The translations under genes were made by a program, and so were the position numbers. A DNA stretch of 63,940 nt, filler included, from Folioceros fuciformis (lineage: Eukaryota): the NCBI GenBank assembly GCA_049999805.1. It is 11 parts of 11 records of this genome, joined end to end, with 100 filler letters (N's around TTAATTAATTAA, not from the genome) between each part and the next. Parts side by side here need not be neighbours in the genome. Positions count along the whole stretch, not along the records: positions 11,758 to 32,702 come from JBNGIO010003304.1; 10 more parts are not named here. The stretch is one strand, 5' to 3'. Below, piece by piece: positions 7,004-51,353 of this stretch. The notes below the pieces were generated by a model. It had not been told where the DNA came from and did not search any database. It worked only from the letters and a program-made list of their open reading frames with translations. The first letter of the stretch is position 1. Each line of letters begins with the position of its first letter.

Positions 7004-7103
7004 NNNNNNNNNNNNNNNNNNNNNNNNNNNNNNNNNNNNNNNNNNNNTTAATTAATTAANNNNNNNNNNNNNNNNNNNNNNNNNNNNNNNNNNNNNNNNN
7101 NNN
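7004..7103. other. Artificial 100-bp contig linker (first of ten)
   Basis: 44 N + TTAATTAATTAA (stops in six frames) + 44 N. Identical copies start at 11658, 32703, 40224, 42764, 49119, 51354, 55747, 59341 and 62683. Confidence 0.97.
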
Positions 7104-11657: not shown

Positions 11658-11757
11658 NNNNNNNNNNNNNNNNNNNNNNNNNNNNNNNNNNNNNNNNNNN
11701 NTTAATTAATTAANNNNNNNNNNNNNNNNNNNNNNNNNNNNNNNNNNNNNNNNNNNN

Positions 11758-14300: not shown

Positions 14301-14819
14301 TTTCTCTTAGTAGTGATGCGTACAATTTCGGCTATTCAGCACCCTCGTTTTTTATGATCATATGAATGGCATTCTTGTCACTTAGGTTCTAACCAAGGCT
14401 AGGGAAGGCAATGATATTGTAGCATGGTCACATGCACTAAAGGACAAATTGCAAGGGATTGACTGTATGTAGATGTTATGTGCTTTCTTGATTGATGATT
14501 GCAAAGGAGAGAGAACTATTATAAGGCAAGTGTTCGGGAAGGAGTGGCTTGTGTTTTTGTGTTTGTAGCATGTGAGAAGAGTTTGGTTACAAAATTTGCT
14601 AAAGATTCTCACATGCCACAAACACAAAAATAGCAAATATGTAACCAAGCTCTTTTAACATGCCACAACTGTAAGGAAAGCAAGGACACTCTTAGAGAGA
14701 GCAAGAGGACGACATGAAGAGAAGTAGGGACTGTTAATTCAATAGCCTATTGTAACAATTATAATTTGGTTTGGGTGTTCATCATGGGATCCTTAACTAA
14801 TCCAACTTGTTGGCCAAAT

Positions 14820-15187
14820 GCTACAACAGGACGGGGTAACAAGAGATCATGGTTCCCAATCCATAAGAGGAGTGAGAGTACTCCTATGTAACAACAAAAG
14901 CTGCACTGGGGTTGAGAAAATGGTGTGCTGCACAGGTAATGGCACTGTAGGAGGCCATGGATGTGCTCACCAACATGGGCGAACCCTATGCCAACATGTT
15001 GTTTTTCATGATCTCAGGATACACTAACCTTAGGAAACCTTGTAAGGCCATACAATTGTATGATGACATGCATAGGCTAGGAGTGAAGTTAGATGGTCAT
15101 GACTTTATAGCTGCCTTGTAGGCTTCCACATTTGTGGTCAACTTCGAAATGGAAAGAAAAGTTAATTGTGATGTGTTGCAAAATGGC
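14820..15187 (+). pseudogene. Decayed PPR paralog fragment
   Basis: About 14942-15187 reads AL*EAMDVLTNMGEPYANMLFFMISGYTNLRKPCKAIQLYDDMHRLGVKLDGHDFIAAL*ASTFVVNFEMERKVNCDVLQNG, matching LQEAMDVFTRVGKPD...GRKVHCDVLHTG of the 19651 gene. There is a weak PDF-like trace near 14820-14895. Confidence 0.7.
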
Positions 15188-15698
15188 AACTAATGAACCA
15201 TGCATGAGTACAATATCTAGGGGCACAATACAACACTCGCTAATGTTGCCAAACTTGCACTTGTAGTCAAGTTCCTATAAATCATGTTCACCAAGGCTCT
15301 TTATAGCGTGATGTCGAAAGAAGGTCATCACCTAAGAAAGAAAAAGAAACCCATTGGTGTGATTGTAGTAAGCTTTTGTACAAGACTTGATAAGTAGTGA
15401 GAATTCCTTACCCATGGCCCTATCGGCCTCTAGAGCAAGGGAAAAAAAAATGTGATCATCATGTAGAGTGAACCTAAGGGAAATAAAATTGTCAACCTGA
15501 GGGAAATAAAATTGTGATTGTCATGTAGAGTGAACCTTGCTTGTTGCACCTCTCAACCCAAAAATAGCCCCAAAGTATACATCAATAGCCTACAAGTTTA
15601 TTTGTTTTTAGTGAATGTGGAGACTCTATACAAATGCCAAAAGTGTAATACAGGTATAGCCTACATTGAAATATTGATATGAGTAGCTGAGTAGGCCA

Positions 15699-15832
15699 CT
15701 ACTTTGCATATAGAGTAACCATGTAGAACATACTACTTTGCATATAGAGTAACCATGTAGAACATACTACTTTGCATATAGAGTTACCATGTAGAATATA
15801 CTACTTTGCATATAGAGTAACTATGTAGAACA
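15699..15832. repeat. 34-bp tandem repeat, 4 copies
   Basis: ctactttgcatatagagtaaccatgtagaacata units start at 15699, 15733, 15767 and 15801. Confidence 0.92.
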
Positions 15833-16714
15833 TTGATTTGAAGTAAAACTCTTATATGGAATAATTTGTAGGACCTTTTATTTTGTACTAGTCAAGGAAT
15901 GATGGGGACTCCAATCCACATCAACATCTTTTTCTTTTGTATTTCATATGTTTTACATGAATATATATTAAACTTACCAAAAAAATATATATTATACTCT
16001 TCTATGTCACTAGCTCTACCTTAATACTATATAGAGTTTTTTTTTTTCTTGTAACATAAGCAAGGTTGTGGGCTGCCAATTGATCCGCATACCCCTTTAT
16101 TTTTAGGATCTTGTTTACATGGGATATTTCTTCAGTTTGTGGTCAATTTACATACACTTTTAATTTAGGGCTTTTGTTTTTAGGGTTCCTATATGTGGGA
16201 GAACTTTCTTCGTAGGAGCATACACCATTGAAAAATCACACGCACACTCATTGTGTTCATACCCTTTTATGTTTCACAAAAAGCACACTCTCCTATTGAA
16301 AAACGGGCACACTCGTATTAAAAAATGACTCTCATATGCAACCGGACACACTCGTATTAAAAAATGACACTCATATGCGATTGGTGCAATGAATTGTGTA
16401 TTCCACACGTCCCATTATTTTGAGGGCCCCTTGAACACCGTTTCTCTTGCTATGGAGCGACTGAGTTTCCACCAGCTCCTCAAATAAACTTTCGATCGGT
16501 GTCTCGGGGTAGACCCTTCCGGACAATGACGTTCGGTGGGTTGTCCATTTGTTTAACCTCTGGAAGATACATAGAAGGGTTCATCCGGGTTTCCCATTTT
16601 GTTGTTGTTTTTAGGTTAAAGGATGAAATTAAGCGACCGTATTTAGTCCGAACAGGACACAATTTAAATTCTGTGCGATGACACGCGTCCGGCCCCGGCT
16701 AGTACTCTGTAACC

Positions 16715-19651
16715 TCACGGTCGACCCTTACAACTGCAAGAACCAGCTGCGAATCGATGCACACGATACCCATCCCTTACAACAATGTGTCTCTGTTCAA
16801 GCCTTGACATGATCTCCGTGGAACTGTGACAGTCACTGCACATGCGAAGATTCTTTGTTACTACAAGAGGTGTCCCACTCGGCGTGTTCAACAGACCGAA
16901 CGCCAGAGCCAACTTCTCAGCATGCCCGCAAAGAGCATCTTCCTTTTGCCTCTCAGCAAGTGGCTTCAAAACCAACTTCGTGTGAGGTACGTGGCCTCCT
17001 TCCTGCTTCACACGGGCATTGATGCTCTTTACCTTAAGAGCAACCTCATCTGTCTTTTCTCCTACCACAAATGTATGTACCTGCTCCTTCACCTCAATAC
17101 CTGCCACTGCCGGTTTCTTGTTAGCTCCTGCGGCCTTTCTCTGTTTCTCGATCCTCTCCACATCGCTCCACCTACCTGCATCTGCGTAGGAATTGGCCAT
17201 GAGCACGTACGTGGGAGCCTGACCGGGATCCAATTCAACAAGCGTTTCGAAGCACAGGGTTGCCCTCTCTATATCCCCATGGCTTTTGCAGGCATTGAGC
17301 AAAGACGTCAATCCGACAACATTCTTTTCGCCATCACATGATGACAGCATATTCTCTGCCTCGTCTAAACGGCCTGCACGCCCCAGAAGGTCAACCATGC
17401 AATTGTAATGCTCGATACCAGGTTCGATGCCATGCTGTTCGGCCATGGAATCAAAGAGCTTGCACCCCTCATGCACCAGTCCCCCGTGACTGCATGCTAC
17501 TAAAAGGGAAGTAAAAGTAGCACCATCAGGCACAATCCCAGCCGCTAGCATCTCCTCAAAACAAGCTAGTGCGTTGTGGCCTTCGTCACAAGTGCCATAC
17601 CCAGATATCAGGGCATTCCAGGTCACCGCATCCTTTGAAACAAGGCTGTCAAACACCTGCCTCGCATCTTCGAGTTCGCCACATTTTGCATACATGTCCA
17701 CAAGGCAGGTGCCCACAAGTAAATTACCTAGCAGCTCTCTTTCCACAATCTGTGAGTGCAGCTGCCTGCCCTTCTGTAATGCACCAGCGCTCGCACAGGC
17801 CTTCAGAAGGCAAGCTAATGTGACGTGGTCAGCCACAATCAGGCCCTCCTGTTCCATTCGTCCGTGCACGACAAGCGCCTCTTGGCTGAGCCCTTGATTT
17901 GTATACCCCGTAATCAGGGCAGTCCATGTTTCCACGGTCTTTGAGGCCAAGTTGTCAAAAGCTCCACGAGCACTGTCCATATCGCCACATTTTCCGTACA
18001 TGTCCACCAGACAGGTGCCAATCAGTGGATTATGTAGCAGTCCTTGTTCCACGATCTGTGAGTGCAGCTCCTTGCCCTCCTGTAACGCACCAGTGGCTGC
18101 ACAAGCCTTCAGAAGGCAGGCAAAGGTAACATGGTTAGCCAAAAGCAGGCCCTCTTGCACCATTTGCCCATACAGAACAAGCGCTTCTTTACCAAGCCCT
18201 TGCTGTGTATAACCAGATATGAGGACTGTCCAAATAACCACATCCTTCGTGTCCAAACTGTCAAAAACTCTGCGAGCATCTTCCAGTTCGCCACATTTTG
18301 CATACATGTCCACCAGGCAGGTTCCAACCAGTAAATTATCCCGCAGTCCTCTTCCTACAATCTGCGAGTGCAGCTGTTTGCCCCTCTGTAACGCACCAGT
18401 GCTTGCACAGGCCCTCAGAAGACTCGCAAAAGTAACATCGTTAGCCAGATTCAAGCCCTCTTGCTCCATTTGTCCATAAACAACAAGCGCCTCTTCGGAG
18501 AGGCCTTGCTGTGCATATCCAGCAAGTAGGGCTGTCCACGTCACCACATCCTTCGTGACCATGCTGTCAAAAACCCGGCACGCATCCTCCAGTTGGCCAC
18601 ATTTTGCATACATGTCCACCAGGCAGGTGCCAAGAAACAAGTTCAGAGGAATGCCAGTGTGCAGCACATCACAGTGCACTTTTCTACCAGAATCCAAGTC
18701 GGCAGCAACTGCACAAGCCTGAAGGGCAGCGGAAAAGACATGGGCATCCGCCTTCACACCAGACCTGCGCATCTCATGGTACAGTTGTATGGCCTCGGCT
18801 GGTTTCCCACCTTTAACATGCGCGGAGATAATGGAAACCCACAAGAAGGCATCTGGTTTGCCAACCCTGGTGAAAACATCCATGGCCTCCTGAAGCCTGC
18901 CTGCACCCGCATACAAGCGCACGAGATGGTTTCCTAAGTATGCATTTGTGTGGTATCCAAGTTTGATGATGAGGTCATGAAGTCGTTGCCCCAGAACTAA
19001 GTCCTTGTTAGCTGTGCACATTTTCAGGACAGTATAAAAGAGAGAGTGAGGCATACTACAGCCCGTGTGCGCCATGGATTCCAGGGCTCCCACGGCCTCA
19101 GCAAGCTTCCCTTGCTGACATAAGGCGCGCACGGTTACAGCCGACACTTGGCCCGATTCTGATCCTGCATACCTGCAAGGCTCAGGCTTATCCCACGAGC
19201 TCGACTTGCAACATGGAGAGGCAGCATGAGCCATGTGCATATCCAAGGAAAGCAGCTGCTCATCCACCCATGCTGGCTTGAAAACATTGTTTAACCAGAG
19301 GACCTCGCCGCCGGACCCCTTACGCCGGAAGTCAGGCCAATGCGAGCTCTTTTTATGTCGCCTGTTATCCCACCACATGCCAGGGTCCAGGAAAAATTCC
19401 TGCCATAACATCTCCTGCTGCTGGTGCCGACCATCGATAGACAATCCTTTCACACCCACACCCATTCTCGAAAGTGGAAGTGGAAGTGGAAGTAATGGAT
19501 TGTTTAAACTGCTGCACCTGTATACGGAGGGGTGGTTTATTCCCGCCCCTTGACTCCATGAGGTGAGATGAGCGGGAGTTCTCCCTAGAATTCCTGTACG
19601 CTGAGCAGTTTCCTGGGTCCACAACGAATCTGGTTGCCATAGTGTGGCCAT
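16715..19651 (-). CDS. PLS-class PPR protein, PDF motif + 18 PPRs + E1/E2 + DYW:KP (GRP-type) domain; candidate U-to-C RNA editing factor (978 aa)
   Basis: The intronless ORF-track start at 19663 is TTG; the first ATG is 19651 (MATLWQPD, homologous to the paralog starts). P-L-S triplets, P2-L2-S2, E1, E2, then KKPAVAGIEV...CGHAEKLALAFGLL...RMCSDCH...CSCKGRP*. N-terminal LWQEFF..WWDNR..PDFRRK..LWL..PAWV at 19253-19408. Confidence 0.93.
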   Translation of the reverse strand: MATLWQPDSLWTQETAQRTGILGRTPAHLTSWSQGAGINHPSVYRCSSLNNPLLPLPLPLSRMGVGVKGLSIDGRHQQQEMLWQEFFLDPGMWWDNRRHKKSSHWPDFRRKGSGGEVLWLNNVFKPAWVDEQLLSLDMHMAHAASPCCKSSSWDKPEPCRYAGSESGQVSAVTVRALCQQGKLAEAVGALESMAHTGCSMPHSLFYTVLKMCTANKDLVLGQRLHDLIIKLGYHTNAYLGNHLVRLYAGAGRLQEAMDVFTRVGKPDAFLWVSIISAHVKGGKPAEAIQLYHEMRRSGVKADAHVFSAALQACAVAADLDSGRKVHCDVLHTGIPLNLFLGTCLVDMYAKCGQLEDACRVFDSMVTKDVVTWTALLAGYAQQGLSEEALVVYGQMEQEGLNLANDVTFASLLRACASTGALQRGKQLHSQIVGRGLRDNLLVGTCLVDMYAKCGELEDARRVFDSLDTKDVVIWTVLISGYTQQGLGKEALVLYGQMVQEGLLLANHVTFACLLKACAATGALQEGKELHSQIVEQGLLHNPLIGTCLVDMYGKCGDMDSARGAFDNLASKTVETWTALITGYTNQGLSQEALVVHGRMEQEGLIVADHVTLACLLKACASAGALQKGRQLHSQIVERELLGNLLVGTCLVDMYAKCGELEDARQVFDSLVSKDAVTWNALISGYGTCDEGHNALACFEEMLAAGIVPDGATFTSLLVACSHGGLVHEGCKLFDSMAEQHGIEPGIEHYNCMVDLLGRAGRLDEAENMLSSCDGEKNVVGLTSLLNACKSHGDIERATLCFETLVELDPGQAPTYVLMANSYADAGRWSDVERIEKQRKAAGANKKPAVAGIEVKEQVHTFVVGEKTDEVALKVKSINARVKQEGGHVPHTKLVLKPLAERQKEDALCGHAEKLALAFGLLNTPSGTPLVVTKNLRMCSDCHSSTEIMSRLEQRHIVVRDGYRVHRFAAGSCSCKGRP

Positions 19652-20054
19652 ATTACCAAGCAAAGCACCACTCTGGGAACACGAGACTGGGGAGGTTGAG
19701 GCAGGATTTCATGTGAATGGCTGGCATCAACCAGGGGGCATGAGCTCTTCTGCATCATGCACTCCTCCCCTTCCAAAACACAGACACTTGCAAGGCAGCC
19801 ATGGAACTACCTCTTATCGGTAACGTGACTCGGGAGCTGGTAGCCATGAGGAAGACCCTGTTGCGGGAATTAGGGGGCCGGGCCAGCCTTTCCAGCTAAA
19901 TCGTGAATGACATACAATACTACACAGTATGTACTTATTTTACCCTCACCTCACTGGAGCATTTCATGACCAACGAACGAGACGCTAAGGGGGCAACGCT
20001 ACCGAGATGCGCATCCTTCATGACCCAACGAACCGGCTGCTAACTGTATCATGG

Positions 20055-20355
20055 CAGCATGGGCACAGAGGATGTGGTGGGACGGAATGCCCTGCCCTGA
20101 TATCTTTGTATGCCCAGCGATAAGCACCCGGCCCGAACGTCCTTTCTCTGTTATTCGGAGACATGGAGAGAGACAAGTCTCACGTGTTTTCTTTATGCTC
20201 GGCTTCTCAAGGGGTGGTGGAAGCAGTGGTGCCTTACAGGCGGGCAGCTCGCTGAGGACTTGGGGAAGCCTGCTGGAGACCTTTCTGGTGGGAATCTGCG
20301 TGGACATGTCTGCCTCCAAAAGTGGTGATCTGAATGAAAGAAGATGCACGCTGGA
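20055..20355 (+). pseudogene. Decayed PPR (P-L-S) fragment between two intact genes
   Basis: Reads TEDVV..NAL, then RLLK..GSSGALQAG...LLETFLVGICVDM..KSGDL..DAR across frames, resembling the central PLS triplet. It is on the opposite strand to both neighbours. Confidence 0.55.
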
Positions 20356-20649
20356 CTTTTTTTTTTTTAACCAAGGCCACAAAGAACATGGTTACGTGAT
20401 CACATAGAGAAACGAAGTTTGCTAGAAATGCGCACCAAGGCCTCTGGTAGACGCGCTTGTTGTGTGTGAGCGCACATGGAGGGGCGAAAGGCCAAATTGT
20501 AGTTGAATTTGTTCAAGCACTTTTTCCAACGAAGTAACCACTGACTCCTGCACCTTTTACCTCCCACCCCCAACCCCACCCCAAAGAAAGAAAGGGCCTC
20601 AGCTTCCCCCCTTCAAATTTGAGAGCACATTGCTTCCCAATCTTAGTGT

Positions 20650-23600
20650 TCACGGTCTGCCTTTACAACTGCAACTGCCGGCTGCAAATCGATGCACACG
20701 GTACCCATCTCTCACAACAATGTCCCTCTGTTCCAGCCTTGACATGATCTGCGTGGAACTATGACAGTCACTGCACATGCGCAGATTCTTTGTTACCACC
20801 AGAGGTGTCCCATTCGGAGTGTTCAACAGACCAAACGCCAGAGCTAGCTTCTCAGCATGCCCGCAAAGGGCATCTTCCTTCTCCTTCTCGGACAGTGGCT
20901 TCAACACCAGCTTCGTGTCAGGTACGTGACCTCCTTCCTCCTTCAGACGTGCATTCGTGCTCTCTACCTTCAACGCAATATCATCTCTTCTTTGTCCCAC
21001 AGCAAATGTATGTACCTGCTCCTTCACCTCGATGGTCGCCACTGCAGGTTTCTTGTTAGCCCCTGCTGCAAGTCTCTGAGTTTCAACCCTGTCTACGTCG
21101 GCCCACATGCCTGCGTCTGCGTAGGCATTGGCCATAAGCACGTACGCAGGCGCCCATTGAGGGTCAAGCCTGACAATGCTTTCAAAACACCGGATAGCCC
21201 TCCTTATATCCCCATGACTTTTGCAGGCATTCAACAAAGACGTCAAGCCTACTACATTCCGTTGGCCCTCACACGACAATAGCATCCTCTCTGCCTCACC
21301 TAGACGGCCTGCACGCCCAAGTAGATCAATCATGCAATTGTAATGCTCAGTTGTGGGGCTGATGCCATACTGTTCAGCCATACAACCAAGGAGCTTGCGG
21401 CCTTCATCCACCAGCCCCTCATGACTGCACGCTACCAGAAGGCACGTAAAAGTAGCCTCATTAGGCTGAATGCCAGCGACTAACATCTCATCAAAACACG
21501 CGAGTGCCTTCTGACCTTCATCACAAGTACCATACCCAGATATCAGGGCGGTCCAAGTCACCACATCCTTCGTGGCCAAGCTGTCAAAGACCCGGCGTGC
21601 GCCTTCTAGACTGCCACACTTTGCATACATATCCACAAGGCAGTTGCCCAACACCACGTTGTCCAGAAGTCCTCTTTCAACAATCAGTGAGTGCAGCTGC
21701 CTGCCCTTCTGTAAAGCACCGCTGCTTGCACACGCCTTAACAAGGCAAGCAAATGTCACATCGTCCGCCACGACCAGGCCCTCCTGCTCTAATTGTCCAT
21801 ATAGAGCAAGCGCCTCTTGTCCCAGCCCTTGCTCAGTATACCCCGCAATCAGGGCATTCCATGTCACCACGTTCTTTGTGCCCATGCTTTCAAAAAGCTG
21901 GCGTGCATCTTCAAATTCACCAAATTTTGCATACCCAGATATCAGCGCAGTCCATGTCACCACATCCTTTTTGTTCATGCTGTCAAAAACCTGGCGTGCG
22001 TCTTCCAGTTCACCACATTTTGCATACATGTCTACTAAGCAGTTGCCTAACACTAGGTCATCCAGCAGTTCTCTTCCAACAATCTGCGAGTGCAGCTGCC
22101 TGCCCTTTTGTAAGGCGCCAGTGCTTCCACATGCGTTCAGAAGGCAAGAAAAAGTCATACCGTCAGCTAAAATGAGGCCCGCCTCCTCCATTTGTCCATG
22201 CACATCCAGAGCCTCCTGGCCCCGTCCTTGCTGTGAGTACCCAGCGATCAGAGCCGTCCACGTCACTACGTTCTTCGTGCCCAAGCGGTCAAAAACCTGG
22301 CGGGCATCCTCCAGCTCACCACATTTTGCATACATGTCGACCAAGCAGGTGCCCACCACTACGTTATCCAGCAGTCCCCTTTCGACGACCAGTGAATGCA
22401 GCTGCCTGCCCTTCTGTAAGGCACCAGTGCTTGCACACGCCGTCAGGAGGCAAGCAAAAGTGACATGATTCGCCAAAAGCAGCCCCTGGCGCTCCATTTG
22501 TCCATACAAAACGAGTGCCTCATGTCCAAGCCCTTGCTGGGAATACCCACATATCAGAGCATTCCATGTAATCACATCCTTCGTGGCCATGCTGTCGAAA
22601 ACCTGGCGTGCATCTTTCATTTCACCACACTTCGCATACATGTCCACCAGGCGGTTGCCCAACACTACATCATCCATTAGTCCTCTTTCCACAATCTGTG
22701 AGTGCAATTGCCTGCCCTTCTGTAAGGCGCCGGTGCTTGAACAGGCCTTCAGAAGGCAAGCAAAAGTAGCCCGGTCAGCCAAAACCAGCCCTTCCCGCTC
22801 CATTTGTTCATACACAACAAGTGCTTCATGTCTGGGCCCTTGGTCGGCAGTCCCAGAGATCAAGGCATTCCGTTTCACCACATCCGGCGTAGCAATACTG
22901 TCCAAATCCTGACGTGCATCTTTCAGTTCACGACAATTTGCATACCCAGCAATCAGAGCATTCCATGTCACCAGGTCCTTTGAGGCCATGTGGTCGAAAA
23001 CCTGGCGTGCATCTTGTAGTTGGCCACATCTTGCATACATATCCACCAGGCAGGTGCCCACCACTACGTTATCCAGCAGCCCTCTTTCGACAATCAGTGA
23101 GTGAAGCTGTCTGCCTTTGTGCAAGGCACCAATACTTCCACAGGCCTTCAGAAGGCAAGCAAAAGTAACATGGTCCGCCAGAACCAGCTCCCCCTGCTCC
23201 ATCTTTCCATACGTAACAAGTGCCTCGTGTCCGAGCCCTTGCTGGGCATACCCGGATATCAGGGCATTCCATGTAACTACATCCTTTGTGGTCATGCTGT
23301 CAAACACCTGGCGTGCGTCTTTCAGTTCGCCACATTTGGCATACATGTCCACCAAGCAGTTGCCAACGAACAAGTTGGTAGGAATGCCGCTGTTTAAAAC
23401 ATCACGGTGCACTCTCCTGCCAGATTCCAAGTCAGCAGCAAAAGCACAGGCTTGAAGGGCAGCTACATAGACGTGAGCATCCGCCTTCACGCCTGACCTA
23501 CACATGATATTGTATAGTCGTAAGGCCTCCTTGGGTTTCCCATGCTTGGCGTATGCAGAGATTATGGAAAACCAGACGAAGGCATCTGGTTTCCCCACCC

Positions 23601-24369
23601 TGGTGAACGCATCCATGGCCTCCTGCAGCCTACCTCCACGTGCATACATGCGCAAGATATGGTTTCCCATGTGTGCATTGGAATCGTAACCAAGCTTCGC
23701 AGTGAGATGGTGAACTCGTCGGCCCATAGCAAAATCCTTCTTAGCTGTACACAGTTTCAACACCGCATAAAACAGAGACGAAGGAAGTGCAGAGTCTGTC
23801 TGTGCCGCAAGAGATTCCAGGGCTCCAATGGCCTCAGAAAGCTTCCCCTGCTGACAAAACATGGTGACGGTCTCAGCCGTGAGGACACCCATTCCGGATC
23901 TTGCACGCTTTCCAGGTTCAGGCTTAAGCAAAGAGGCGGACGCTGAAGGCGTGGCAGCATGACCACCCATCTGCATATCCAAGGAAACGAGCTGCTCATC
24001 CACCCAAGCTGGCTTGGACCTGTCGTTCAGCCACAGGACCTCGCCGGACCCCTTACGCCGAAAGTCGGGCGAACGGGAGCTCCTCTTCTCTCGTCTGTTG
24101 TCCCACCACATGGTAGGCTCCAGAAAAAATTGTTGCCATAAGTGCTCCTGCTTCTGGCAACGAGCATCTGTTGACAAGGCGTCCCCACCCGAACATTTTG
24201 TGGGAAGTGGAAGTGCAAGTGCTGTGCTCCTTACGCTACTGCACCTGGAGGCTCTGCTTGCCAGAGGTTCACTCCCTAAGACATGGTGAGCGGCAGCTCC
24301 CGCTAGAATCGCAGTACATACACCAATTTGTTGAGTCCACTGCGGGTCCGGTTGCCATACCGTAGCCAT
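20650..24369 (-). CDS. PLS-class PPR protein, PDF motif + 26 PPRs + E1/E2 + DYW:KP (GRP-type) domain (1239 aa)
   Basis: The ORF-track start at 24492 is GTG; the first ATG is 24369 (MATVWQPD). Five central PLS triplets plus two SS motifs; KKPAVATIEV, HAEKLA, CSDCH, CSCKGRP*. PDF motif at 23989-24141. Confidence 0.93.
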   Translation of the reverse strand: MATVWQPDPQWTQQIGVCTAILAGAAAHHVLGSEPLASRASRCSSVRSTALALPLPTKCSGGDALSTDARCQKQEHLWQQFFLEPTMWWDNRREKRSSRSPDFRRKGSGEVLWLNDRSKPAWVDEQLVSLDMQMGGHAATPSASASLLKPEPGKRARSGMGVLTAETVTMFCQQGKLSEAIGALESLAAQTDSALPSSLFYAVLKLCTAKKDFAMGRRVHHLTAKLGYDSNAHMGNHILRMYARGGRLQEAMDAFTRVGKPDAFVWFSIISAYAKHGKPKEALRLYNIMCRSGVKADAHVYVAALQACAFAADLESGRRVHRDVLNSGIPTNLFVGNCLVDMYAKCGELKDARQVFDSMTTKDVVTWNALISGYAQQGLGHEALVTYGKMEQGELVLADHVTFACLLKACGSIGALHKGRQLHSLIVERGLLDNVVVGTCLVDMYARCGQLQDARQVFDHMASKDLVTWNALIAGYANCRELKDARQDLDSIATPDVVKRNALISGTADQGPRHEALVVYEQMEREGLVLADRATFACLLKACSSTGALQKGRQLHSQIVERGLMDDVVLGNRLVDMYAKCGEMKDARQVFDSMATKDVITWNALICGYSQQGLGHEALVLYGQMERQGLLLANHVTFACLLTACASTGALQKGRQLHSLVVERGLLDNVVVGTCLVDMYAKCGELEDARQVFDRLGTKNVVTWTALIAGYSQQGRGQEALDVHGQMEEAGLILADGMTFSCLLNACGSTGALQKGRQLHSQIVGRELLDDLVLGNCLVDMYAKCGELEDARQVFDSMNKKDVVTWTALISGYAKFGEFEDARQLFESMGTKNVVTWNALIAGYTEQGLGQEALALYGQLEQEGLVVADDVTFACLVKACASSGALQKGRQLHSLIVERGLLDNVVLGNCLVDMYAKCGSLEGARRVFDSLATKDVVTWTALISGYGTCDEGQKALACFDEMLVAGIQPNEATFTCLLVACSHEGLVDEGRKLLGCMAEQYGISPTTEHYNCMIDLLGRAGRLGEAERMLLSCEGQRNVVGLTSLLNACKSHGDIRRAIRCFESIVRLDPQWAPAYVLMANAYADAGMWADVDRVETQRLAAGANKKPAVATIEVKEQVHTFAVGQRRDDIALKVESTNARLKEEGGHVPDTKLVLKPLSEKEKEDALCGHAEKLALAFGLLNTPNGTPLVVTKNLRMCSDCHSSTQIMSRLEQRDIVVRDGYRVHRFAAGSCSCKGRP

Positions 24370-24789
24370 CGTCCAAGTTCCGTTATCGGAAGATGAGTCT
24401 AACGTCCACCAATGCAGGATGGCATAGTCAGGAAGTGAGGCATTTCGGCAAGGGACACGGCCAACGGCCACGGCCACAGCCGGACGATCCACACACTTAG
24501 ACGAACATCTCTTTATGTTTTTTCATTGCCATCGTGAACGATGCAGCGTGTCCCAAAGTGAAGTCTAAACTTCTCGATGTTGAAACAAGTCCATCTTTGG
24601 GGTCCGTGTCCGCGCGGGGTAGAGACGATGTCCGTGGCACGCCTGACCAGCGGGTGTTTGCGGTTATGTCCTTCACCGCCACTGCCTTCTGGTCAGGGCT
24701 CAACAACAATTGGTCCAGCGCTGGATCCCTCGTAGCCTCTCGACTGGCTCTGCCTTTTACGGCTGGAGCTTGCTCTTTCCGCCGTGACA

Positions 24790-27324
24790 CATGCACACAC
24801 ACAGGGATTCTATTACCAGCAGCTCCCGCCCAACGCATCTCAGGGACTCAAGCCCTGGCAAACAGAGCCTCCGGCTGTGGCAGTGTAAGGACTCGGAGCC
24901 TGAACTTCCACTTCCGAGATCGCGCGTGGGTAGGGACGACCTTTCCAGCGATGCCGGCCGTTGCCAGGGACAGCAGCTGCAGGAGCAGGAGAACTTGTGG
25001 CAACAGTTTCTTCTTCACCCTACTCTTTGTTGGGAAGACAGACGAGATAAGAAGAGCTCCCGTCTCCCTGACTTTCGGAGTAATGTGTCCGCCGAGGGGC
25101 TGTGGTTGAACGTGTTGAAGTCAGATTTGGTTGATGAGAAGCTGGCTTCCCTGGATATGCACAGGAGTCGCGGCGCCTCTCCTTTCAACTCCAACTCTCG
25201 AGATAATCCTGAACCTGGGAATCTCTCAGAACGGGAAATGGGTTCCTGGTCCAGCATTGTAAGGAGCCCAGCACTTCCACGTACCAGAAAATGTCTGAGT
25301 GGGGACGGGACTTCCACCCATGCTCGACGCCAGGAGCTGCAGGAGCAGGAACACTTCTGGCAACAATTCTTTGGGAGCCTGTCACGTGGGTGGGACAACA
25401 GATGAAGTACAGTAAGAAGAGCTCCAGTTCGCCTGACGTCCGGCGTTAGGGTTCCGGTGAGGTCCTGTGGTTACGCAACACGTTCAAGCCAGCTTGGGTT
25501 GATGACCAGCTCATGTCCATGGATATGCACGTGGTGCATGCCTCCCCCCTTCCAATTCCACGCGTCTGTGTAAGCCTCCTGAACCCCAGAGGCGCGCAGG
25601 ATCGGCAATCGGCATCCGTTCTTCTGTCACCCTGACCAAGTTGTGTCAGCAGGGCAATCTCTTCGAGGCCGTTGGTGCCCTGGAATCTCTGGCGCGCATG
25701 GACTCAGCGTTTAATCTGTCCCTGGTTTGCACTGGGATCAAACTGTGTACAGCTAAGAAGGATTTGGTTGCTGGTCGACGGGTTCATCATCACACTGTTA
25801 AACCTGGCTACGAGACGAATGCGTTCTTGGCCAGCCATTTCTTGCGCATGTATGTATGCATGTGGAGGCAGCCTAGAGGAGGCCGTTGATGTGTTCAGCA
25901 GGGTGCGGGAACCGGATGCCTACATGTGGTCTTCCATAATCTCTGCACACCCAAAGCATGGGAAACCCAATGAGGCAGTACAATTGTACTATGATATCCC
26001 TGGCTCAGCAGTGAAGGCAGATGCATATGTCTTCATGGCCGCCCTTCAAGCTTGTGCACTGGCTGCCGACTTGGTAGTTGGCAGAACAGTGCATCGCGAT
26101 GCGTTGCACAGTGGCATTCCGACTGACTTATTTGTGGACGACTGCCGGGTGGACATGTATGCAAAATGTGGCAAAATGAAAGACGCACGCCAGGTTTTTG
26201 ACAGCATGGCCATATAGGACGTGGTCACATGCAATGCCCTCATATCTGGGTATGCAAAATTGGAAGATGCGCACAAGGTTTTTGACAGCTTGAACACAAA
26301 GGATGTGGTGACCTGGAACGCCTTGATAGCTGGATATGCACAGCAAGGACTCGTACCTGAGGCTTCTTTTGTAAACGGACGAATGGAGTAAGATGGCCAG
26401 GTTTTGGCTGGCCGTGCTACTTTTTGGCTGCCTTCTCAAGGCCTGTGCCAGCACGGGAGCTTTGCAAAAGGGCAGGCAACTGCACTCACAGATTGTGGAA
26501 AGAGGACTGCTGGAGGACGTGGTTGTGGGCACCTGCCTTGTAGACGTATGCGAAATGGGGTGAACTGGAAGATGCACGCCAGGTTTTTGACAGCATGAAC
26601 TCAAAAAATGTTGGGACATGGACCGTTCTGATAGCTGACTATGGCACTTGTGATGAAGGTGTCAAGGCACTGGCTTGTTTTGAGAAGATGTTAGTTGCGG
26701 GTGTTCAGCCAAACGAAGCTACTTTCACTTGTCTCCTAGTGGCATGCAGTCACGCATGACTAGTCGAGGAGGGTCGCAAGCACTTCGATTCCATGTTCGA
26801 ACAGTATGACATCAAACCTACTATTGAGCAGTATACCTGCATGATAGATCTTCTCGGGCGTGCGGGCCATTTAGATGAGGCAGAGAAGATACTATCATCA
26901 TTTGAATGCAAAAGTCATGTTGTGGGCTTGATGACCTTGTTGAATGCCTGCAAAATTTATGGGGACCTAAAAAGAGCTGTTCGGTGTTTTGAAAGCCTTG
27001 TTAGGCTGGAACCGTTGCTGGCGCCCGCCTATGTGCTCATGGCCAGTGCCTATGCAGATGCAGGTCAGTGGAGCGATGTAGTCAGGATTGAAGCATTGAG
27101 AATGGTAGCAGGAGCTAATAAGAAACCTGCAGTGGCGACCATAGAGGTGAATATGGCGGTACACAGATTTCTGGTGGGAGAAAAGAGAGGATATTCCATT
27201 TAAGGTCGACAGCACGAATGCAAATGTGAAGCTGGGAGTAGGCCATGTACCTCACACGAAGTTGGTGTTGAAGCCAGTGTGTGAGAAGGAAAAGGAAGAT
27301 GTGCTCTGTGGGCATGCAGAGAAA
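24790..27324 (+). pseudogene. PPR-DYW:KP pseudogene, tandem paralog of the 28095 gene, with a duplicated PDF motif
   Basis: ORF pieces 24534/24791/25641/25672/26793/27226 align in order to the 28095 protein, broken by frameshifts and stops (e.g. TAG at 26215). Homology ends right after CGHAEK at 27324. The 5' boundary is approximate. Confidence 0.88.
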
Positions 27325-28094
27325 CCAATGGAAGCACGTGGAGCGAGTTCCAATATGGATGCCGATCGAATTGCCCCAGGTATGGATTCAAGCGCTTTGA
27401 AGTACTGAACTGCCAGAAACGTTGAGGTCAGGGTGAAACGTTCGGGGCCTGAATGGTACGGACGAATGGACGGGGCTCATTTTCAGTCACATCTGACGCG
27501 CCTGCCTTCACATTCGGCCAGCTCATCTCATGTCAGCCCCTGCTCCCTACAGCTGCCATCACAGCAGCACTGCATCGCTGATGTTTGCTGTGCTTGCTCA
27601 GAGGTCTGAGGGGGGGAGGTCTGGATTCAGTTTGGCAAAGCTAGAGGAACGTGATCCAGTCGGACTGAGTGACCAGCTCGATTAGTGACCAAGTTGATGC
27701 AGTCTCGGGGCCTCATTGTCGCAGCCCTCAGCCGCCTGTGCACGATGTGCCCGATGCCCACCTACTTCTCCATCAGCCGCGGATCGCGATGGGGCCGAAT
27801 CGGGCGATATGAGCCGGCCACAAGTGATTTGATGGAGCGAAGGTGGTTCACTCTTGCCCTCATCTCGGCTGGCCATGCAGCCCTGTATTTGGTGGCGCCC
27901 GCCCTGTGTCACCTGCACCTGCCCTATCGTGGAGGATGTCGGACTGCCCTCAACCAGCGCCATCTTCGAATTGGGAGGGCCTTCGGTAGTCCAATCCGCA
28001 CAGCGGCCGAGGGAACCTTGTACCTGTTATACGCCGTTGCTCCTGTGATGTGGTGGAACTGTGCATCCTGCCATACCCAGCTGATTCCGGCGCC

Positions 28095-30536
28095 ATGGTC
28101 ACAGTATGGCAACGGGACCCGTCGTGGACCACCCAACAAAATGCGCTCGGCGTTTGTACTCGTATCCCACTAGAACCTCCCGCTCGCTTCTTCATCTTGG
28201 GGAGTCGACCTCCCTTGGCAAACAAAGCCTCCAAGTGCAGCAGTGTCGAGTGTTGGAACCCAGAACTTTCTCTTCCGAGGAAATGTGTGGGTCGGGACGC
28301 CTTTCCAAGCAGGGATGGCTGTCGCCGGGAGCAGCAACAGGAGCAGGAGCAGGAGCAGGAGCAGTTGTGGCAACATCTTTTTCTGGAGCCTAGCATGTGG
28401 TGGGACAACAGACGAGTTAAGAGGAGCTCCTGTTCGCCGGACTTCCGACGTAAGAGGTCTGGCGAGGTATTGTGGTTGAACAACATGTTCAAGCCAGCTT
28501 GGGTGGACGAACGGCTCGTTTCCTTGGATATGCACGTGGGTGATCATGCTGCCTCGCCTTCAGCGTCCACCTCTTTGCATAAGCCTGAACCTGGAAAGCG
28601 TGCAAGGACGGGAGTGGGTGTGCTCACCGCTGGAACTGTCACCATGTTCTGCCAGCAGGGAAAGCTTTCTGAGGCCGTCGGATCCCTGGAATCACTGGCG
28701 GATACTGACTCTGCCATTTCTCAGTCCCTGCTGTACACTGTGCTCAAATTGTGCACAGCTAAGAAGGATATGGTCATGGGGCGTCGAGTTCATGTTCTCA
28801 TTGCCAAACTTGGATACGATTCCAGCTCATTCTTGGGGAACCATATCGTGCGCATGTATGCCAGTGGAGGTAGGCTGCAGGAGGCCATTCATGTGTTCAA
28901 CAGGGTGGAGAAACCAGATGCCTTCATGTGGTCTTCCATAATCTCAGCACACTCAAAACATGGGAAGCCTAAGGCAGCCATACGACTGTACCACGAGATG
29001 CGTTGGTCAGGAGTGCAGCCAGATGCCCACGTCTTTGTAGCTGCCCTTCAAGCTTGTGCATTTGCCGTTGACTTGGAATCTGGCAGAGCAGTGCACTCTG
29101 ATGTGGTGCATAGTGGCATTGCTGCAAACTTGTTTGTAGGCAACTGCCTGGTGGACATGTATGCAAAATGTGGCAACATGGAAGATGCACGCCAGGTTTT
29201 TGACAGCATGAACACGAAGGATGTGGTGACATGGAATGCCCTGATAGCTGGCTATGCCAAATGTGGTGACCTGAAAGATGCACGGCAGGTTTTTGACAGC
29301 ATGAAGACAAAGAACGTGGTGACGTGGAACACCTTGATAGCTGGGTATGCGCAACAAGGCCTTGGCCAAGAGGCGCTTCTTCTGTATGGACGAATGGAGC
29401 AGGAGGGCCTCATTCTGCCTGACCATTTTACGTTTGGTTGCCTTCTGAACGCCTGTGCGAGCACTGGTGCTTTGCAGAAGGGCAGACAGCTGCACTCTCA
29501 GATTGTGGAAAGAGGGCTCTTGGAGGACGTAGTCGTGGGCACCTGCCTGGTGGACATGTATGCAAAATGTGGTGAACTAGAAGATGCACGCCAGGTTTTC
29601 GATGGCATGAACACCAAGAATGTGGTGACATGGACCACCCTGATTGGTGGGTATGGTACGTGTGATGAAGGTCGCAAGGCACTGGCTTGTTTCGAGGAGA
29701 TGTTAGTTGCTGGCGTTCAGCCAGACGAGGCGACTTTTTGTCGCCTTTTAGTGGCTTGCAGTCATGAGGGACTGGTGGAGGAGGGGCGCAAGCACTTTCA
29801 TTCCATGGCTGAAGAGCATGGCATCAAACCCACTGTCGAGCATTACACCTGCATGATCGACCTTCTTGGGCGTGCTGGCCATTTAGATGAGGCAAATGCG
29901 ATTCTGTCATCCTTTTTGGGCGATAGGGATGTTGTGGGCTTGACTTCCTTGTTGAGTGCGTGCAAAAGCCATGGCGATCTAGAGAGGGCGATTTGGTGTT
30001 TTGAGAACATTGTGAGGCTGGACCCGCAGAGGGCGCCCGCCTATGTGCTCATGGCCAGTGCCTATGCAGATGCAGGTAGATGGAGCGATGTAGACAGGAT
30101 CGAAAGACAGAGAACGGAGGCAGGAGCGAACAAGAAAGCTGCAATGGCAACCATTGAGGTGAATAATAAGGTCCACAGTTTCCTGGTGGGAGAGAGGAGA
30201 GAGGATATTGCAATGAAGGTGAAGAGCACGAATGCACGTTTGAAGCAGGAAGGGGGCCATGTACCTCACACGAAGCTCGTGCTGAAGCCAGTGTGTGAGA
30301 AGGAAAAGGAAGATGCCCTTTGCGGGCATGCTGAGAAGCTAGCCCTAGCGTTTGGTCTGTTGAACACTCCGAGTGGGACACCTCTGGTGGTGACCAAGAA
30401 TCTACGCATGTGCAGCGACTGCCACGGTTCCACGCAGATCATGTCAAGGCTGGAACAGAGACACATTGTTGTGAGGGATGGATTTAGGGTGCATCGATTC
30501 GCAGCTGGTTGTTGCAGTTGCAAAGGGCGACCGTGA
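28095..30536 (+). CDS. PLS-class PPR protein, PDF motif + 13 PPRs + E1/E2 + DYW:KP-like (GRP-type) domain (813 aa)
   Basis: The ORF-track start at 28050 is GTG; the first ATG is 28095 (MVTVWQRD). KKAAMATIEV, HAEKLA, CSDCH, CSCKGRP*. PDF motif at 28365-28517. Confidence 0.93.
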   Translation: MVTVWQRDPSWTTQQNALGVCTRIPLEPPARFFILGSRPPLANKASKCSSVECWNPELSLPRKCVGRDAFPSRDGCRREQQQEQEQEQEQLWQHLFLEPSMWWDNRRVKRSSCSPDFRRKRSGEVLWLNNMFKPAWVDERLVSLDMHVGDHAASPSASTSLHKPEPGKRARTGVGVLTAGTVTMFCQQGKLSEAVGSLESLADTDSAISQSLLYTVLKLCTAKKDMVMGRRVHVLIAKLGYDSSSFLGNHIVRMYASGGRLQEAIHVFNRVEKPDAFMWSSIISAHSKHGKPKAAIRLYHEMRWSGVQPDAHVFVAALQACAFAVDLESGRAVHSDVVHSGIAANLFVGNCLVDMYAKCGNMEDARQVFDSMNTKDVVTWNALIAGYAKCGDLKDARQVFDSMKTKNVVTWNTLIAGYAQQGLGQEALLLYGRMEQEGLILPDHFTFGCLLNACASTGALQKGRQLHSQIVERGLLEDVVVGTCLVDMYAKCGELEDARQVFDGMNTKNVVTWTTLIGGYGTCDEGRKALACFEEMLVAGVQPDEATFCRLLVACSHEGLVEEGRKHFHSMAEEHGIKPTVEHYTCMIDLLGRAGHLDEANAILSSFLGDRDVVGLTSLLSACKSHGDLERAIWCFENIVRLDPQRAPAYVLMASAYADAGRWSDVDRIERQRTEAGANKKAAMATIEVNNKVHSFLVGERREDIAMKVKSTNARLKQEGGHVPHTKLVLKPVCEKEKEDALCGHAEKLALAFGLLNTPSGTPLVVTKNLRMCSDCHGSTQIMSRLEQRHIVVRDGFRVHRFAAGCCSCKGRP

Positions 30537-32495
30537 CAAAAACGATGGAACCAGCCAGAGCTCATGCCTGTGCTGAGAGGTCCATCCACGCCAAACTGGT
30601 ACATGCACATGGATGCCGGGTTGTGATTTACCTCGGACTACGGGTTTTTGGAATTGAAATGAAAGACTGTTTGTGGAGGGATGAAGTTCCATGCTGCTGT
30701 AGCTGTGGTACGGGATGAGTGTTTAACGAATGCTTGAACGGACGGTTGTGTTTTATGGTGGCGGGGAGGTGGTCTCTAAACATTTCGTGGATGTGGGTAG
30801 CTGCGCATCTTTGCTTGGCTCCCACACGAGTTACAAGAAATCTTGCAAATGGTATCCGATGGCCAATAAGGGTCGGCACGCGAGTCCGCTGGGCCCTCTG
30901 CATAAGTTTTGACACCAGGCGCTATTCGTCACTACAAAGTAATTGAACGCACGAAACCCGACGCGCCAGGTCGTCATGGTCATGTCTTTGTTTGCATCAT
31001 GCTAAGTGCAAAGTCACCGTAGTGTCCGTGATCTGAGCTCTAATAACAGAGTACCTGGCCGTAATGCATGCCGTTCCGGATCATTGTAATCTCACTGCAG
31101 CGTAACCGTAACTGTTTGTATTCCAGATGTATACAGCACAAATACCTTGCATGAGTTACTCGACAAACGGCCTTATACCTCACAACGCGTATCAAGTTTA
31201 CATTGCGTGGTTGCTTATGTTTTGAGAGGACAGCATAGCAGTGCGCACTGAAAGCAGGCTTCGTAGTTCACGCTCCATAGTGGACGATTGAGGATTGATC
31301 TCTCCAAGCGGTGATTGTTTGGTTGGAAGAAGATGAACCTGTGCAACTCGATTATGTGCTGCTGCGCATTGTTATTGGCGATTATGATGCAGGCTCACAT
31401 GTGTATCGAGGTGCTGCTTACTTGTTTCACAACGATCTCCCCAAATGGTTGGTGCAAAAGGTGTAAGGAAGTTGTAAGTGGCAAGCTGCATTATCATTTA
31501 CGACTGCTACTTGCTTATTCAAGTTCCAAGACATGGGCAACTGCTTTCGCAGCCGGAAGGGATTTTACGAGGTTGACTCGAGAGGAGTTCCGTATGAAAG
31601 AATTGAGAGGAGAAGCCTCAACTTTGCTTAGAAGGTTGCAAGGAAGGCATTTATTTTGCCTCTTCTCCATTAAGAGAGCCATTGCTCACCACCCTGCAAG
31701 CGTTATTATTTTACAAGGTGATGCAGTGTATGTGCAGGACTTGTTTCCAACCATTTCAGATCTAAACAGCACACTAGCTAGACCACACCTAGGAAAACCA
31801 TGTTGTGCTAACAAACCTAAGAACACCAAGCATTGAAGGTCTGTCCTTAGGTGTCTTGGACACGACCATACCCACATCTTCTCATGCAAACATGAATATA
31901 CAACTAGCAAACAAGCATTTGTCATTGTCTACTACTCTTGTCATTTGCTCGTGCTTATCCATAGTAGTGATAATGTCCCTCCCAACTACCACCCTTGCCA
32001 CTATTTCTCTCATACTTTGCCTTGCATGCATTGCACTGTGTTAGCTTTTGTAAGACTTCCCCACATTTTGTATTTGAAAAACGAAAGATGTGGCTTAAAG
32101 TGCAAGTGTCTTTTGTCCATACATGTAATCTCAAAAATGGGATATGCACATACAATCATGATTCAACTAAGCAATGATGAAAACTATCTAGTTCGATAAA
32201 CTAATACCAAATCTATGGCTTAAAGTAGAAGCATCTTTTTGTCCATCCATGTAATCACAAAATGGTATATGTACACAAATTCATGATTCCAGCAAGAAAT
32301 AATGAAAACTACTTACTACAATATACCAATGCCAAATCTAACAGAAACTATGCTTCAAGTCTTAGGGTTCCAATAGCTACAGCTACAGCTACGCCCTTCC
32401 TGCTTCAGGTGTGTCTATTCGAACAACTACACCATGGAGTTCACATGGTAAAGGGATTCCCTAGAAAAAAAAGTCTTCTTTGTTTGTTTGTTTTT

Positions 32496-32702
32496 TTTAG
32501 GGTTTAGGGTTTAGGGTGGGAGGGCTTAGAGTTTGGGTTAAAGGGTTTCGGGTTTTAGGGTTAACGCTTAAGGGTTACGGGTTACGGGTTTAGGGTTTAG
32601 GGTTAAGGGTTAAGGGTTTAGGGCTAAGGGTTCAGGGTTTAGGGTTAAGGGTTAAGGGTTAAGGGTTAAGGGTTAAGGGTTAAGGGTTAAGGGTTAAGGG
32701 TT
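32496..32702 (+). repeat. Telomere-like G-rich tract at contig end (TTTAGGG, variants, then (TTAAGGG)8)
   Basis: Three TTTAGGG at 32496-32516, then mixed TTTCGGG/TTACGGG/CTAAGGG/TTCAGGG/TTTAGGG, then 8 perfect TTAAGGG at 32645-32700 running into the linker. Confidence 0.9.
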
Positions 32703-32879
32703 NNNNNNNNNNNNNNNNNNNNNNNNNNNNNNNNNNNNNNNNNNNNTTAATTAATTAANNNNNNNNNNNNNNNNNNNNNNNNNNNNNNNNNNNNNNNNNN
32801 NNGACTCTTGATATATTGTATATAAGACACATCAGGTTCTAAAATTATAAACTTTGCTTTTGGCAATTGTGTGTATATG

Positions 32880-39364: not shown

Positions 39365-40323
39365 TTTTAAGCCCTACGATGCAGCATTGGGCCATCCCCT
39401 CCATTTTCAGTTCCTATGTGTGATGCACAGGATCATTCCAGGAGCCCTAGCTGCAAATCACTACACCCTTGTTAATCCTAGATGAATCAACACTCTCAGC
39501 TAAGCAGGTTAGCAAGACTGGTGATCACTTACCTTCAATAGCAGAGGTAAGCAGCTTGGAAGTTCGCGAGTTACCTCCTCTCTCGCCATTCTTAAGCCGG
39601 CGACAATAGCAGGCGTCTTCGTGCATTTCCTTCCTTACACAAAGGAAAAGAGAACAAAAAGATTGTCCATGCCTTCCAAGATGTTAGGCTGCTCACATGT
39701 GCCATAGCTCACTCCGTGTCATAAAGTTGCAAAAAGGGGGCTGCCCTCGTCGGGCTGCCCAGAGTTGGTAAGTCACTAGCAGGATGCCACCATCTCCCTT
39801 ACACCCACAATCTGCACCAAATAGCTCTTTCTTTCATAGACGGCTAGTGAACAACCAAAAAAAGGGTTTAGGTCTTCCGGTGGTTCCTCTAATGAGCAAC
39901 TTCGACAACTGCCTTTCTCCTCACCGTGTTTGATCTCTTTGTTTGGTGCCCTTCCAAGCCGTTTCCCATGGGCTGTATGAGCCCACGCGCTTCTAGTGGG
40001 CAAGTAGCCCTGGCTAGTATTTCAGCCATTTACGTAAATTAGGTTGAGACAGTTCTTTTACCTATTACTTATCTTATTTCCTATTATTAAATCAGCTAAT
40101 TTAGGTAGAGTTAGTTTAATCACCTGTTATCTAATCAGCTAAATTCCACTAAACTATCACGTTCACCATGACGGTCTACTATAAGTCCATTTTTGCCACA
40201 ATTTCACGACAGCTGTCGTGCTCNNNNNNNNNNNNNNNNNNNNNNNNNNNNNNNNNNNNNNNNNNNNTTAATTAATTAANNNNNNNNNNNNNNNNNNNNN
40301 NNNNNNNNNNNNNNNNNNNNNNN

Positions 40324-42763: not shown

Positions 42764-43149
42764 NNNNNNNNNNNNNNNNNNNNNNNNNNNNNNNNNNNNN
42801 NNNNNNNTTAATTAATTAANNNNNNNNNNNNNNNNNNNNNNNNNNNNNNNNNNNNNNNNNNNNGAAGTGAAGAGTGAGCTGCTGAAGTGCAGGAGTGTGT
42901 GTTGAAGTGGAGGGTGGAGGACTGAAGTGAAGAGGAAGGGACTGAAGTGGGAAGTTTGCAGAGCTGAGGTGAAGGAGAAAGTGGCTGAAGTGGAAATCAA
43001 GAAGAGCTGAAGGACTGAAGAACTGGAGTGTGAGTTGGGCGAGCTGACTTCGGGGGTAGGCTAGGCTTCTAGCCTTTTTGTTGTGAGTGTATGGACAGAC
43101 CTATAGACCGGCTGATAGGTAGAAGTGTGATAGGTAGTGTTCCTTGGCA

Positions 43150-49118: not shown

Positions 49119-49218
49119 NNNNNNNNNNNNNNNNNNNNNNNNNNNNNNNNNNNNNNNNNNNNTTAATTAATTAANNNNNNNNNNNNNNNNNNNNNNNNNN
49201 NNNNNNNNNNNNNNNNNN

Positions 49219-51267: not shown

Positions 51268-51353
51268 TGTGGAGGCAAAACCCCGGGCACTGATTGCCGA
51301 CGGATTCCACCTTTAGTGGCCACACTTATCCCACTGTCGTTGAGACATTGGGT
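51268..51353. mobile_element. LTR terminus inserted at the gypsy RT active-site codons
   Basis: TGTGGAGGCAAAACC... is the reverse complement of 56610-56695 (ending ...GCCTCCACA). The junction lies immediately before FCVFG, which normally follows the xxDD motif. Confidence 0.75.

Follow-up and report, generated by a model that had tools for sequence, protein, structure and literature searches.

A stretch of 63,940 nucleotides of Folioceros fuciformis DNA (assembly GCA_049999805.1; the window), made up of 11 joined parts of which positions 11,758 to 32,702 come from JBNGIO010003304.1, holds a proximal cluster of what are probably four old paralogues, three of them live and one dead. They are probably nuclear genes and would encode factors that edit organelle RNA, of the GRP subtype of PPR-DYW:KP proteins (pentatricopeptide repeat proteins ending in a DYW:KP deaminase domain) known from hornworts. 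The three live genes, referred to here as g1, g2, and g3, are candidate U-to-C editors by analogy with published designer enzymes. Furthermore, all four copies carry a PDF motif, which is known as a single-strand-binding motif from the OSB proteins of plants. An earlier note on this DNA described the three live genes and missed both the pseudogene and the PDF motif.

Gene layout and the GRP-type DYW:KP domain

The earlier note placed its cluster of GRP-type DYW:KP proteins between positions 16715 and 30536, and three long uninterrupted open reading frames (ORFs) are found exactly there (Table 1). Judged by a common MATVWQ-like methionine start, the ATG codons at 19651, 24369, and 28095 are the probable starts of g1, g2, and g3, respectively. 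Pfam recognized PPR repeats, an E motif, and the PF14432 DYW_deaminase domain in all three proteins (E = 4e-31 in g1, 3e-33 in g2, and 2e-31 in g3 for the last of these), so that their PPR/E/DYW identity lies far beyond chance. All three show the layout of the PLS class of PPR-E-DYW proteins, in which P, L, and S motifs alternate ahead of P2-L2-S2, E1, and E2; in g1 the complete order is presequence, PDF motif, PLS PPR array, E1, E2, and DYW:KP(GRP). The N-terminal leader of g1-g3 is poorly conserved and is probably a transit peptide. The g3 leader contains a Glu/Gln-rich low-complexity insert (QQQEQEQEQEQ; 28300-28372) just before the PDF motif, which g1 and g2 do not have.

The C-terminal domain of g2, numbered here from KPAVAT, has 133 residues and includes H65-A66-E67, K88, M92, C93/C96/H97, H120/C127/C129, and GRP at positions 131-133, and the signature and catalytic columns so numbered are identical in g1, g2, and g3. 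Most of the features that the earlier note had read in these domains are borne out by the translations: HAEKLA, an intact CxDCH (CSDCH in each copy), a terminal GRP, and intact zinc ligands with the catalytic Glu are found in three of three. Lys88, the K of KNLRMC, is present in all three as well. The segment KKPAVA.IEV, which it had given for the whole set, is present in g1 and g2 but not in g3, which reads KKAAMATIEV and is, therefore, without a literal KP. The missing SHP segment, also noted earlier, appears as a 4-residue gap when g2 is aligned with the solved PG-type domain of 9kfx, and alignment with 9kfx places Glu (g1) or Gln (g2 and g3) in the column occupied by a structural Lys in PG domains. 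In the Protein Data Bank (PDB), the g2 domain matched 9kfx (2e-47), 7w86 (4e-30), and 7o4e (2e-28) by sequence. A structural model of g2 E2 plus DYW, with a mean predicted local confidence (pLDDT) of 94.2, superposed best on 9kfx_A (TMq 0.87, root-mean-square deviation 2.1, E 1e-17) and also on the OTP86 DYW domain (7o4e/7o4f) and DYW1 (7w86).

When the last 169 residues of g3 were used as a query, 136 of 419 candidate proteins matched at E<=1e-5, and the best 120 of these were used. Among these 120, the closest matches are 59-71% identical, end in GRP or DRH, and carry HAEKLA and KNLRMC; fern (Adiantum) proteins with HAE come next, followed by angiosperm proteins with HSE...DYW. These closest relatives of GRP and DRH type make the hornwort host inferred in the earlier note plausible. 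A tree of the 120 relatives and the three window domains, with none dropped, was made by a quick IQ-TREE run with SH-aLRT supports on 140 columns, which are few for so many rows. The g1-g3 domains group together (support 100) inside a clade of seven rows ending in GRP (98), and this clade adjoins the DRH group, forming 19 rows in all (90). GRP and DRH rows lie inside a KP-type clade of 39 non-W rows (99), opposed to 84 W-ending HSE-type rows (99). In the phylogeny that the earlier note had proposed as a check, the domains thus do not group with canonical DYW domains, and the GRP-type DYW:KP class that it had assigned agrees with the motifs and with the nesting of the GRP clade within the KP-type clade. 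A canonical DYW:PG identity of g1-g3 was also considered and is ruled out by the tree together with the motifs.

Canonical PPR-DYW:PG proteins (OTP86, DYW1, and the synthetic PPR-DYW of 9kfx) share with g1-g3 the fold, the zinc ligands, the catalytic Glu, and an active-site Lys. In contrast to these proteins, g1-g3 have KP(A) in place of PG, HAE in place of HSE, a 4-residue deletion at SHP, Met rather than Val before CxDC, and GRP rather than DYW at the end, and they fall in a separate clade (support 99). The hornwort GRP-type DYW:KP proteins and the designer enzymes KP2 and KP3 have the same (P1-L1-S1)n-P2-L2-S2-E1-E2-DYW layout as g1-g3 and the same 133-residue domain with a KP box, HAE, Lys88, Met92, no xHP, and a terminal GRP. 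Differences from the GRP type include KA for KP in g3 and Gln in g2 and g3 where Glu is reported. In hornworts, DYW:KP domains come in two variants, DRH and GRP, a distinction that PMC9478123 credits to Gerke et al. (2020), and a survey of 364 genomes, 22 of them from hornworts, catalogued 3,761 DYW:KP domains from 68 land plants (PMC13386178). With hornwort GRP and DRH variants on record since 2020, and with U-to-C conversion by designers based on the GRP consensus, the class is already in print, and g1-g3 are ordinary new members of it.

Selection, editing direction, and predicted targets

Nei-Gojobori pairwise estimates were made for the three pairs of g1-g3, with synonymous divergence (dS) mostly 0.5-1.3. 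The ratio of nonsynonymous to synonymous divergence (dN/dS) was 0.14-0.17 in the DYW domain, 0.12-0.22 in the PDF motif, and 0.17-0.27 in PPR plus E, while it reached 0.33-0.68 in the leader and 0.36-0.71 in the linker. The three genes are old paralogues that have all been retained, and purifying selection acts on the PDF motif as strongly as on the deaminase. It is very unlikely that g1-g3 are silent or decaying relics of a PPR expansion, able at most to bind RNA. One of the four cluster copies is already dead and the cluster lies among retrotransposon debris, but ORFs of 813-1239 codons have stayed intact despite a dS of ~0.5-1.3, dN/dS is 0.14-0.27 across the PPR, E, and DYW regions, and the catalytic residues are all invariant.

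The earlier note stated that DYW:KP/GRP variants occur in lineages with U-to-C editing and that designed KP domains have converted U to C, in agreement with PMC9478123. In that work, KP2 and KP3, designed from the GRP consensus, reached 26% and 22% U-to-C editing, respectively, with no C-to-U editing in E. coli (PMC9478123). Lys88 is essential for U-to-C conversion (PMC11845758), and the reaction has been proposed to pass through a lysine-uridine Schiff base (PMC11332814). It is from the designers only that the U-to-C direction is inferred for g1-g3, which are accordingly described as candidates. In the mechanism envisaged, the PPR array would bind single-stranded organelle RNA upstream of the target, as the canonical PPR code predicts, and the zinc/Glu67/Lys88 site would turn the target U into C by way of a lysine-uridine Schiff base, by analogy with KP2 and KP3. 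The PDF motif may give a second contact with single-stranded nucleic acid, as suggested by the binding of single-stranded DNA (ssDNA) by OSB1.

Several points weigh against assigning g1-g3 to the GRP subtype as U-to-C editors. The KP box of g3 lacks its Pro (KKAAMATIEV). GRP proteins are reported with Glu at the structural-Lys position of PG domains (PMC9478123), and this Glu is kept by g1 only, Gln being present in g2 and g3. The reference rows of the tree are labelled by their own motifs only. Furthermore, KP6 edits in both directions in human cells, and a K88A substitution turns KP2 and KP3 into C-to-U editors (~81% and ~76%; PMC11845758, PMC9478123), so that editing direction depends on subtle features. 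These two results also favor the alternative that g1-g3 are active editors, but C-to-U or bidirectional rather than dedicated U-to-C enzymes. The presence of all deaminase zinc ligands and of the catalytic Glu is consistent with that alternative, as is the statement, in the available text of PMC11845758, that no native KP enzyme has been assayed. However, it is quite unlikely, given that Lys88 is kept in all three copies, that two GRP-consensus designers edited U to C with no detectable C-to-U in E. coli (PMC9478123), and that the g1-g3 domains lie deep within the GRP clade. In the titles and opening lines of abstracts of most papers found since 2024 on hornwort U-to-C editing factors, no assay of a native hornwort KP protein is reported.

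U-to-C is the one transition without a characterized natural enzyme, and, in the available text of three papers, the only working U-to-C editors are consensus designs that have modest efficiency and stay crosslinked to RNA (PMC9478123, PMC11332814, PMC11845758). Unlike the designers KP2 and KP3, g1-g3 occur naturally, and their native arrays differ in length. As full-length native GRP genes that are under selection and have different arrays, g1-g3 are ready test cases for U-to-C enzymes. Taken alone, they are three more members of a family counted in thousands, and their extra value lies in the conserved PDF motif.

The PPR arrays comprise ~4 P1-L1-S1 triplets in g1, ~7 in g2 (the longest, with additional SS motifs), and ~3 in g3 (the shortest), with 35/36-, 35-, and 31-residue units in the motif table (36 for P1, 35 for L1, and 31 for S1) and some extra 31-residue S-type motifs. 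The arrays are tandem repeats at the DNA level (17597-18633, 21531-23344, and 29160-29350), in which the repeat units are 306 bp (102 codons, one P1-L1-S1 triplet, 77% matches) or 399 bp (a triplet plus one 31-residue S motif), accompanied by 93-bp duplications; thus, the arrays grew or shrank by unit duplication within the genes. The repeated P1 motifs of g1-g3 have 36 residues rather than the usual 35, with the extra residue placed before the last position (...EGLVLAD; e.g. g2 364-399). In the PPR code the pair NN is read as C or U (Y in the strings below). The pairs TD, TN, ND, and NS specify G, A, U, and C, respectively (PMC12733224). Code strings were written 5' to 3' to S2 from the P and S motifs, with L motifs as dots and unassigned pairs as '?', S2 being read in a 32-residue register, which is our own reading. 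Under the canonical code the strings are U?.GA.GA.?G.GU.Y for g1, U?.UU.GUU.UY.AG.UAU.UA.Y for g2, and UG.UYU.AG.G for g3. Because the arrays differ between paralogues, each is predicted to address a different RNA site.

The N-terminal PDF motif

The PDF motif of g1-g3 spans ~50 residues, includes WWDNR and PDFRRK, lies ~75 residues from the start, and is also found in the pseudogene. As described in the literature, it is a motif of ~50 residues named after Pro-Asp-Phe, and the motif of AtOSB1 alone suffices for ssDNA binding (PMC6963530). A Pfam scan of the N-terminal region did not recognize the PDF motif; it was located with a hidden Markov model (HMM) of 52 positions built from 274 motif instances. 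A phmmer search with the first 150 residues of g2 against 1.84e9 representative proteins gave 629 matches at E<=1e-3, 178 at <=1e-10, and 16 at <=1e-30, and the best stretches all fell on g2 residues ~70-135, often several per protein. When 17 of these matches were scanned with Pfam, an SSB/OB domain was found at E<=1e-3 in 10, the OSB architecture, and five cleared the 26-bit cut-off; another four were PPR proteins with an N-terminal PDF motif, and one was a kinesin. In a PDF profile search, 7 of the 20 longer matched proteins bear the NCBI names OSB1, OSB2, Osb3, OSB4, or PriB/SSB. In BLASTP, the g2 segment aligned with each of the four repeats in an NCBI-named OSB1, at 43-48% identity and with E values from 1e-17 to 7e-15, and it matched a liverwort SSB-domain protein at E 9e-18.

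In a model of the g2 motif (pLDDT 84, core 90-96), a helix, three short strands, and a second helix follow one another. No solved relative of this fold was found, the best values being E 6 with Foldseek against the PDB and Z 4.7 with VIA-align against 48,161 chains, a negative that carries no weight as evidence, and a search of the ESM Atlas with the PDF region gave no usable match. The N-terminal region of g3 was also compared, by a word-indexed search, with proteins about as long as g3, and none of 205 candidates reached E<=1e-3.

With the OSB proteins, g1-g3 share the ~50-residue PDF motif and its invariant Trp, Asp, Arg, Pro, and Leu positions. However, the motif is single and N-terminal in g1-g3, whereas it is C-terminal and often repeated in OSB proteins, and the partner domains in g1-g3 are a PPR array and a deaminase, with no OB/SSB domain. 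Pfam found no PF00436 in g1-g3 at E<=0.01, and among the 190 N-terminal residues no OB/SSB domain turned up when the threshold was relaxed to E<=10. Membership of g1-g3 in the OSB family was considered and is ruled out, as there is no OB domain and only the PDF motif is held in common.

It is possible, if doubtful, that native hornwort KP editors have an unrecognized PDF-PLS-E-DYW:KP architecture in which the PDF motif works as a second module for binding nucleic acid. If so, the motif could hold single-stranded RNA or tether the factor to ssDNA or transcribing nucleoids, and the lysine-crosslinked intermediate could then depend on it for efficient turnover. KP2 and KP3 consist, by published design, of PLS triplets and the C-terminal domains without an N-terminal PDF motif (PMC9478123), and such a module would help to explain the poor editing and RNA crosslinking of designers that lack it. 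If the motif belongs to the mature enzyme, it would link editing factors to the organellar single-strand-binding OSB family. Literature searches, which did not reach the founding papers of Gerke et al. (2020) and Gutmann et al. (2020) that possibly describe N-terminal extensions, found no link between the PDF motif and PPR proteins, and the terms PDF and OSB are absent from the available portion of the DYW:KP survey (PMC13386178).

The motif might instead be what is left, in the leader or transit peptide, of an old exon capture, lost on import or skipped by a downstream start, although this is unlikely. Its place, within the first 130 residues, is that of organelle presequences, and Met residues follow it in g2. 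A downstream Met start, or cleavage with the transit peptide, could remove the motif, which counts against a role in the mature enzyme. It was also found in only 3 of 35 KP-type database relatives (two GRP, one DRH), many of the others being N-terminally truncated. On the other hand, a mere remnant is hard to reconcile with dN/dS as low in the motif as in the deaminase (0.12-0.22, with flanks at 0.33-0.71), with the matching of all 52 model positions across three old paralogues, or with the confident small folded unit of the model, which has blocks of pLDDT 90-96. Furthermore, the motif is seen again in further proteins of the GRP and DRH types, and the motif alone led to four PPR proteins that carry it.

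The phmmer matches P0125, P0179, P0202, P0239, P0219, and P0233 comprise other PPR proteins that begin with one to three PDF motifs and two short fragments in which the PDF motif runs straight into a PPR-like helix, and PDF-PPR fusions may, therefore, extend beyond the GRP class. P0122, P0123, and P0165 include proteins with at least nine copies of the PDF motif (HMMER counts 9 and 13 stretches), and the motif occurs twice in a kinesin-motor protein of 1526 residues.

The pseudogene and the rest of the window

The fourth copy carries several frameshifts and stops and retains remnants of PPR, E1, and E2. Its DYW domain ends right after HAEK, and CxDCH and GRP are absent from the frame read-out. 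It has two tandem PDF motifs, one whole and one split by a frameshift, whereas the live copies have one. Upstream of the cluster, in AT-rich sequence, there is an isolated PPR fragment (14951-15187, plus strand) that is 46% identical to g2 residues 291-369 and has an internal stop.

Table 1. Positions of the genes, domains, and other features along the window
Feature	Position	Strand	Basis or remarks
g1 ORF	16715-19663	-	uninterrupted ORF, mechanical start TTG or GTG
g2 ORF	20650-24492	-	uninterrupted ORF, mechanical start TTG or GTG
g3 ORF	28050-30536	+	uninterrupted ORF, mechanical start TTG or GTG
g1 gene from conserved ATG (probable start)	16715-19651	-	978 codons, intact, intronless
g2 gene from conserved ATG (probable start)	20650-24369	-	1239 codons, intact, intronless
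g3 gene from conserved ATG (probable start)	28095-30536	+	813 codons, intact, intronless
g1 DYW:KP domain, GRP subtype	16718-17116	-	133 codons; Pfam, motifs, tree
g2 DYW:KP domain, GRP subtype	20653-21051	-	motifs, PDB sequence matches, model
g3 DYW:KP domain, GRP subtype	30135-30533	+	Pfam, motifs, tree
g1 PDF motif	19259-19414	-	HMM i-E 7e-17, model positions 2-51 of 52
g2 PDF motif	23995-24150	-	HMM i-E 7e-20; phmmer; BLASTP to OSB1; model
g3 PDF motif	28356-28511	+	HMM i-E 8.5e-19, model positions 1-51 of 52
Pseudogene	about 24809-27405	+	tblastn pieces in three frames; head-to-head with g2, between g2 and g3
Pseudogene, whole PDF motif	24986-25123	+	PDF HMM 4e-11
Pseudogene, split PDF motif	halves 25349-25402 and 25453-25506	+	PDF HMM
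Retrotransposon fragment	542-1795		Ty1/copia or Ty3/gypsy
Retrotransposon fragment	7582-8214		Ty1/copia or Ty3/gypsy
Retrotransposon fragment	37316-38641		Ty1/copia or Ty3/gypsy
Retrotransposon fragment	40756-42315	-	Ty1/copia or Ty3/gypsy
Retrotransposon fragment	45396-46124	-	Ty1/copia or Ty3/gypsy
Retrotransposon fragment	49219-51323	-	Ty1/copia or Ty3/gypsy
Filler joints	7004-7103, 11658-11757, 32703-32802, 40224-40323, 42764-42863
Filler joints	49119-49218, 51354-51453, 55747-55846, 59341-59440, 62683-62782

Contigs of sequencing run X1, which shares 0.75 of words and is of a library kind that was guessed, DNA and RNA not being distinguishable, were compared with the window over 14500-32600. 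They cover g1-g3, the pseudogene, and the spacers 19369-20557, 24101-25694, and 27296-28324 at similar depth, and do not cover 14500-16311 or 31412-32600. The X1 contigs seem to be cut at the g3 leader insert (28300-28372). Sequencing runs of organisms B and C gave only ~60-letter pieces, which fall on the PPR repeats.

The window looks like nuclear DNA of a plant. Fragments of Ty1/copia (gag, pre-integrase, RVT_2) and Ty3/gypsy (RNase H, integrase) elements lie on both sides of the cluster along the joined stretch. The ten joints between parts are filler, each with two runs of 44 N around 12 bases (880 N in total), and one such pair of N runs interrupts a gypsy pol ORF.

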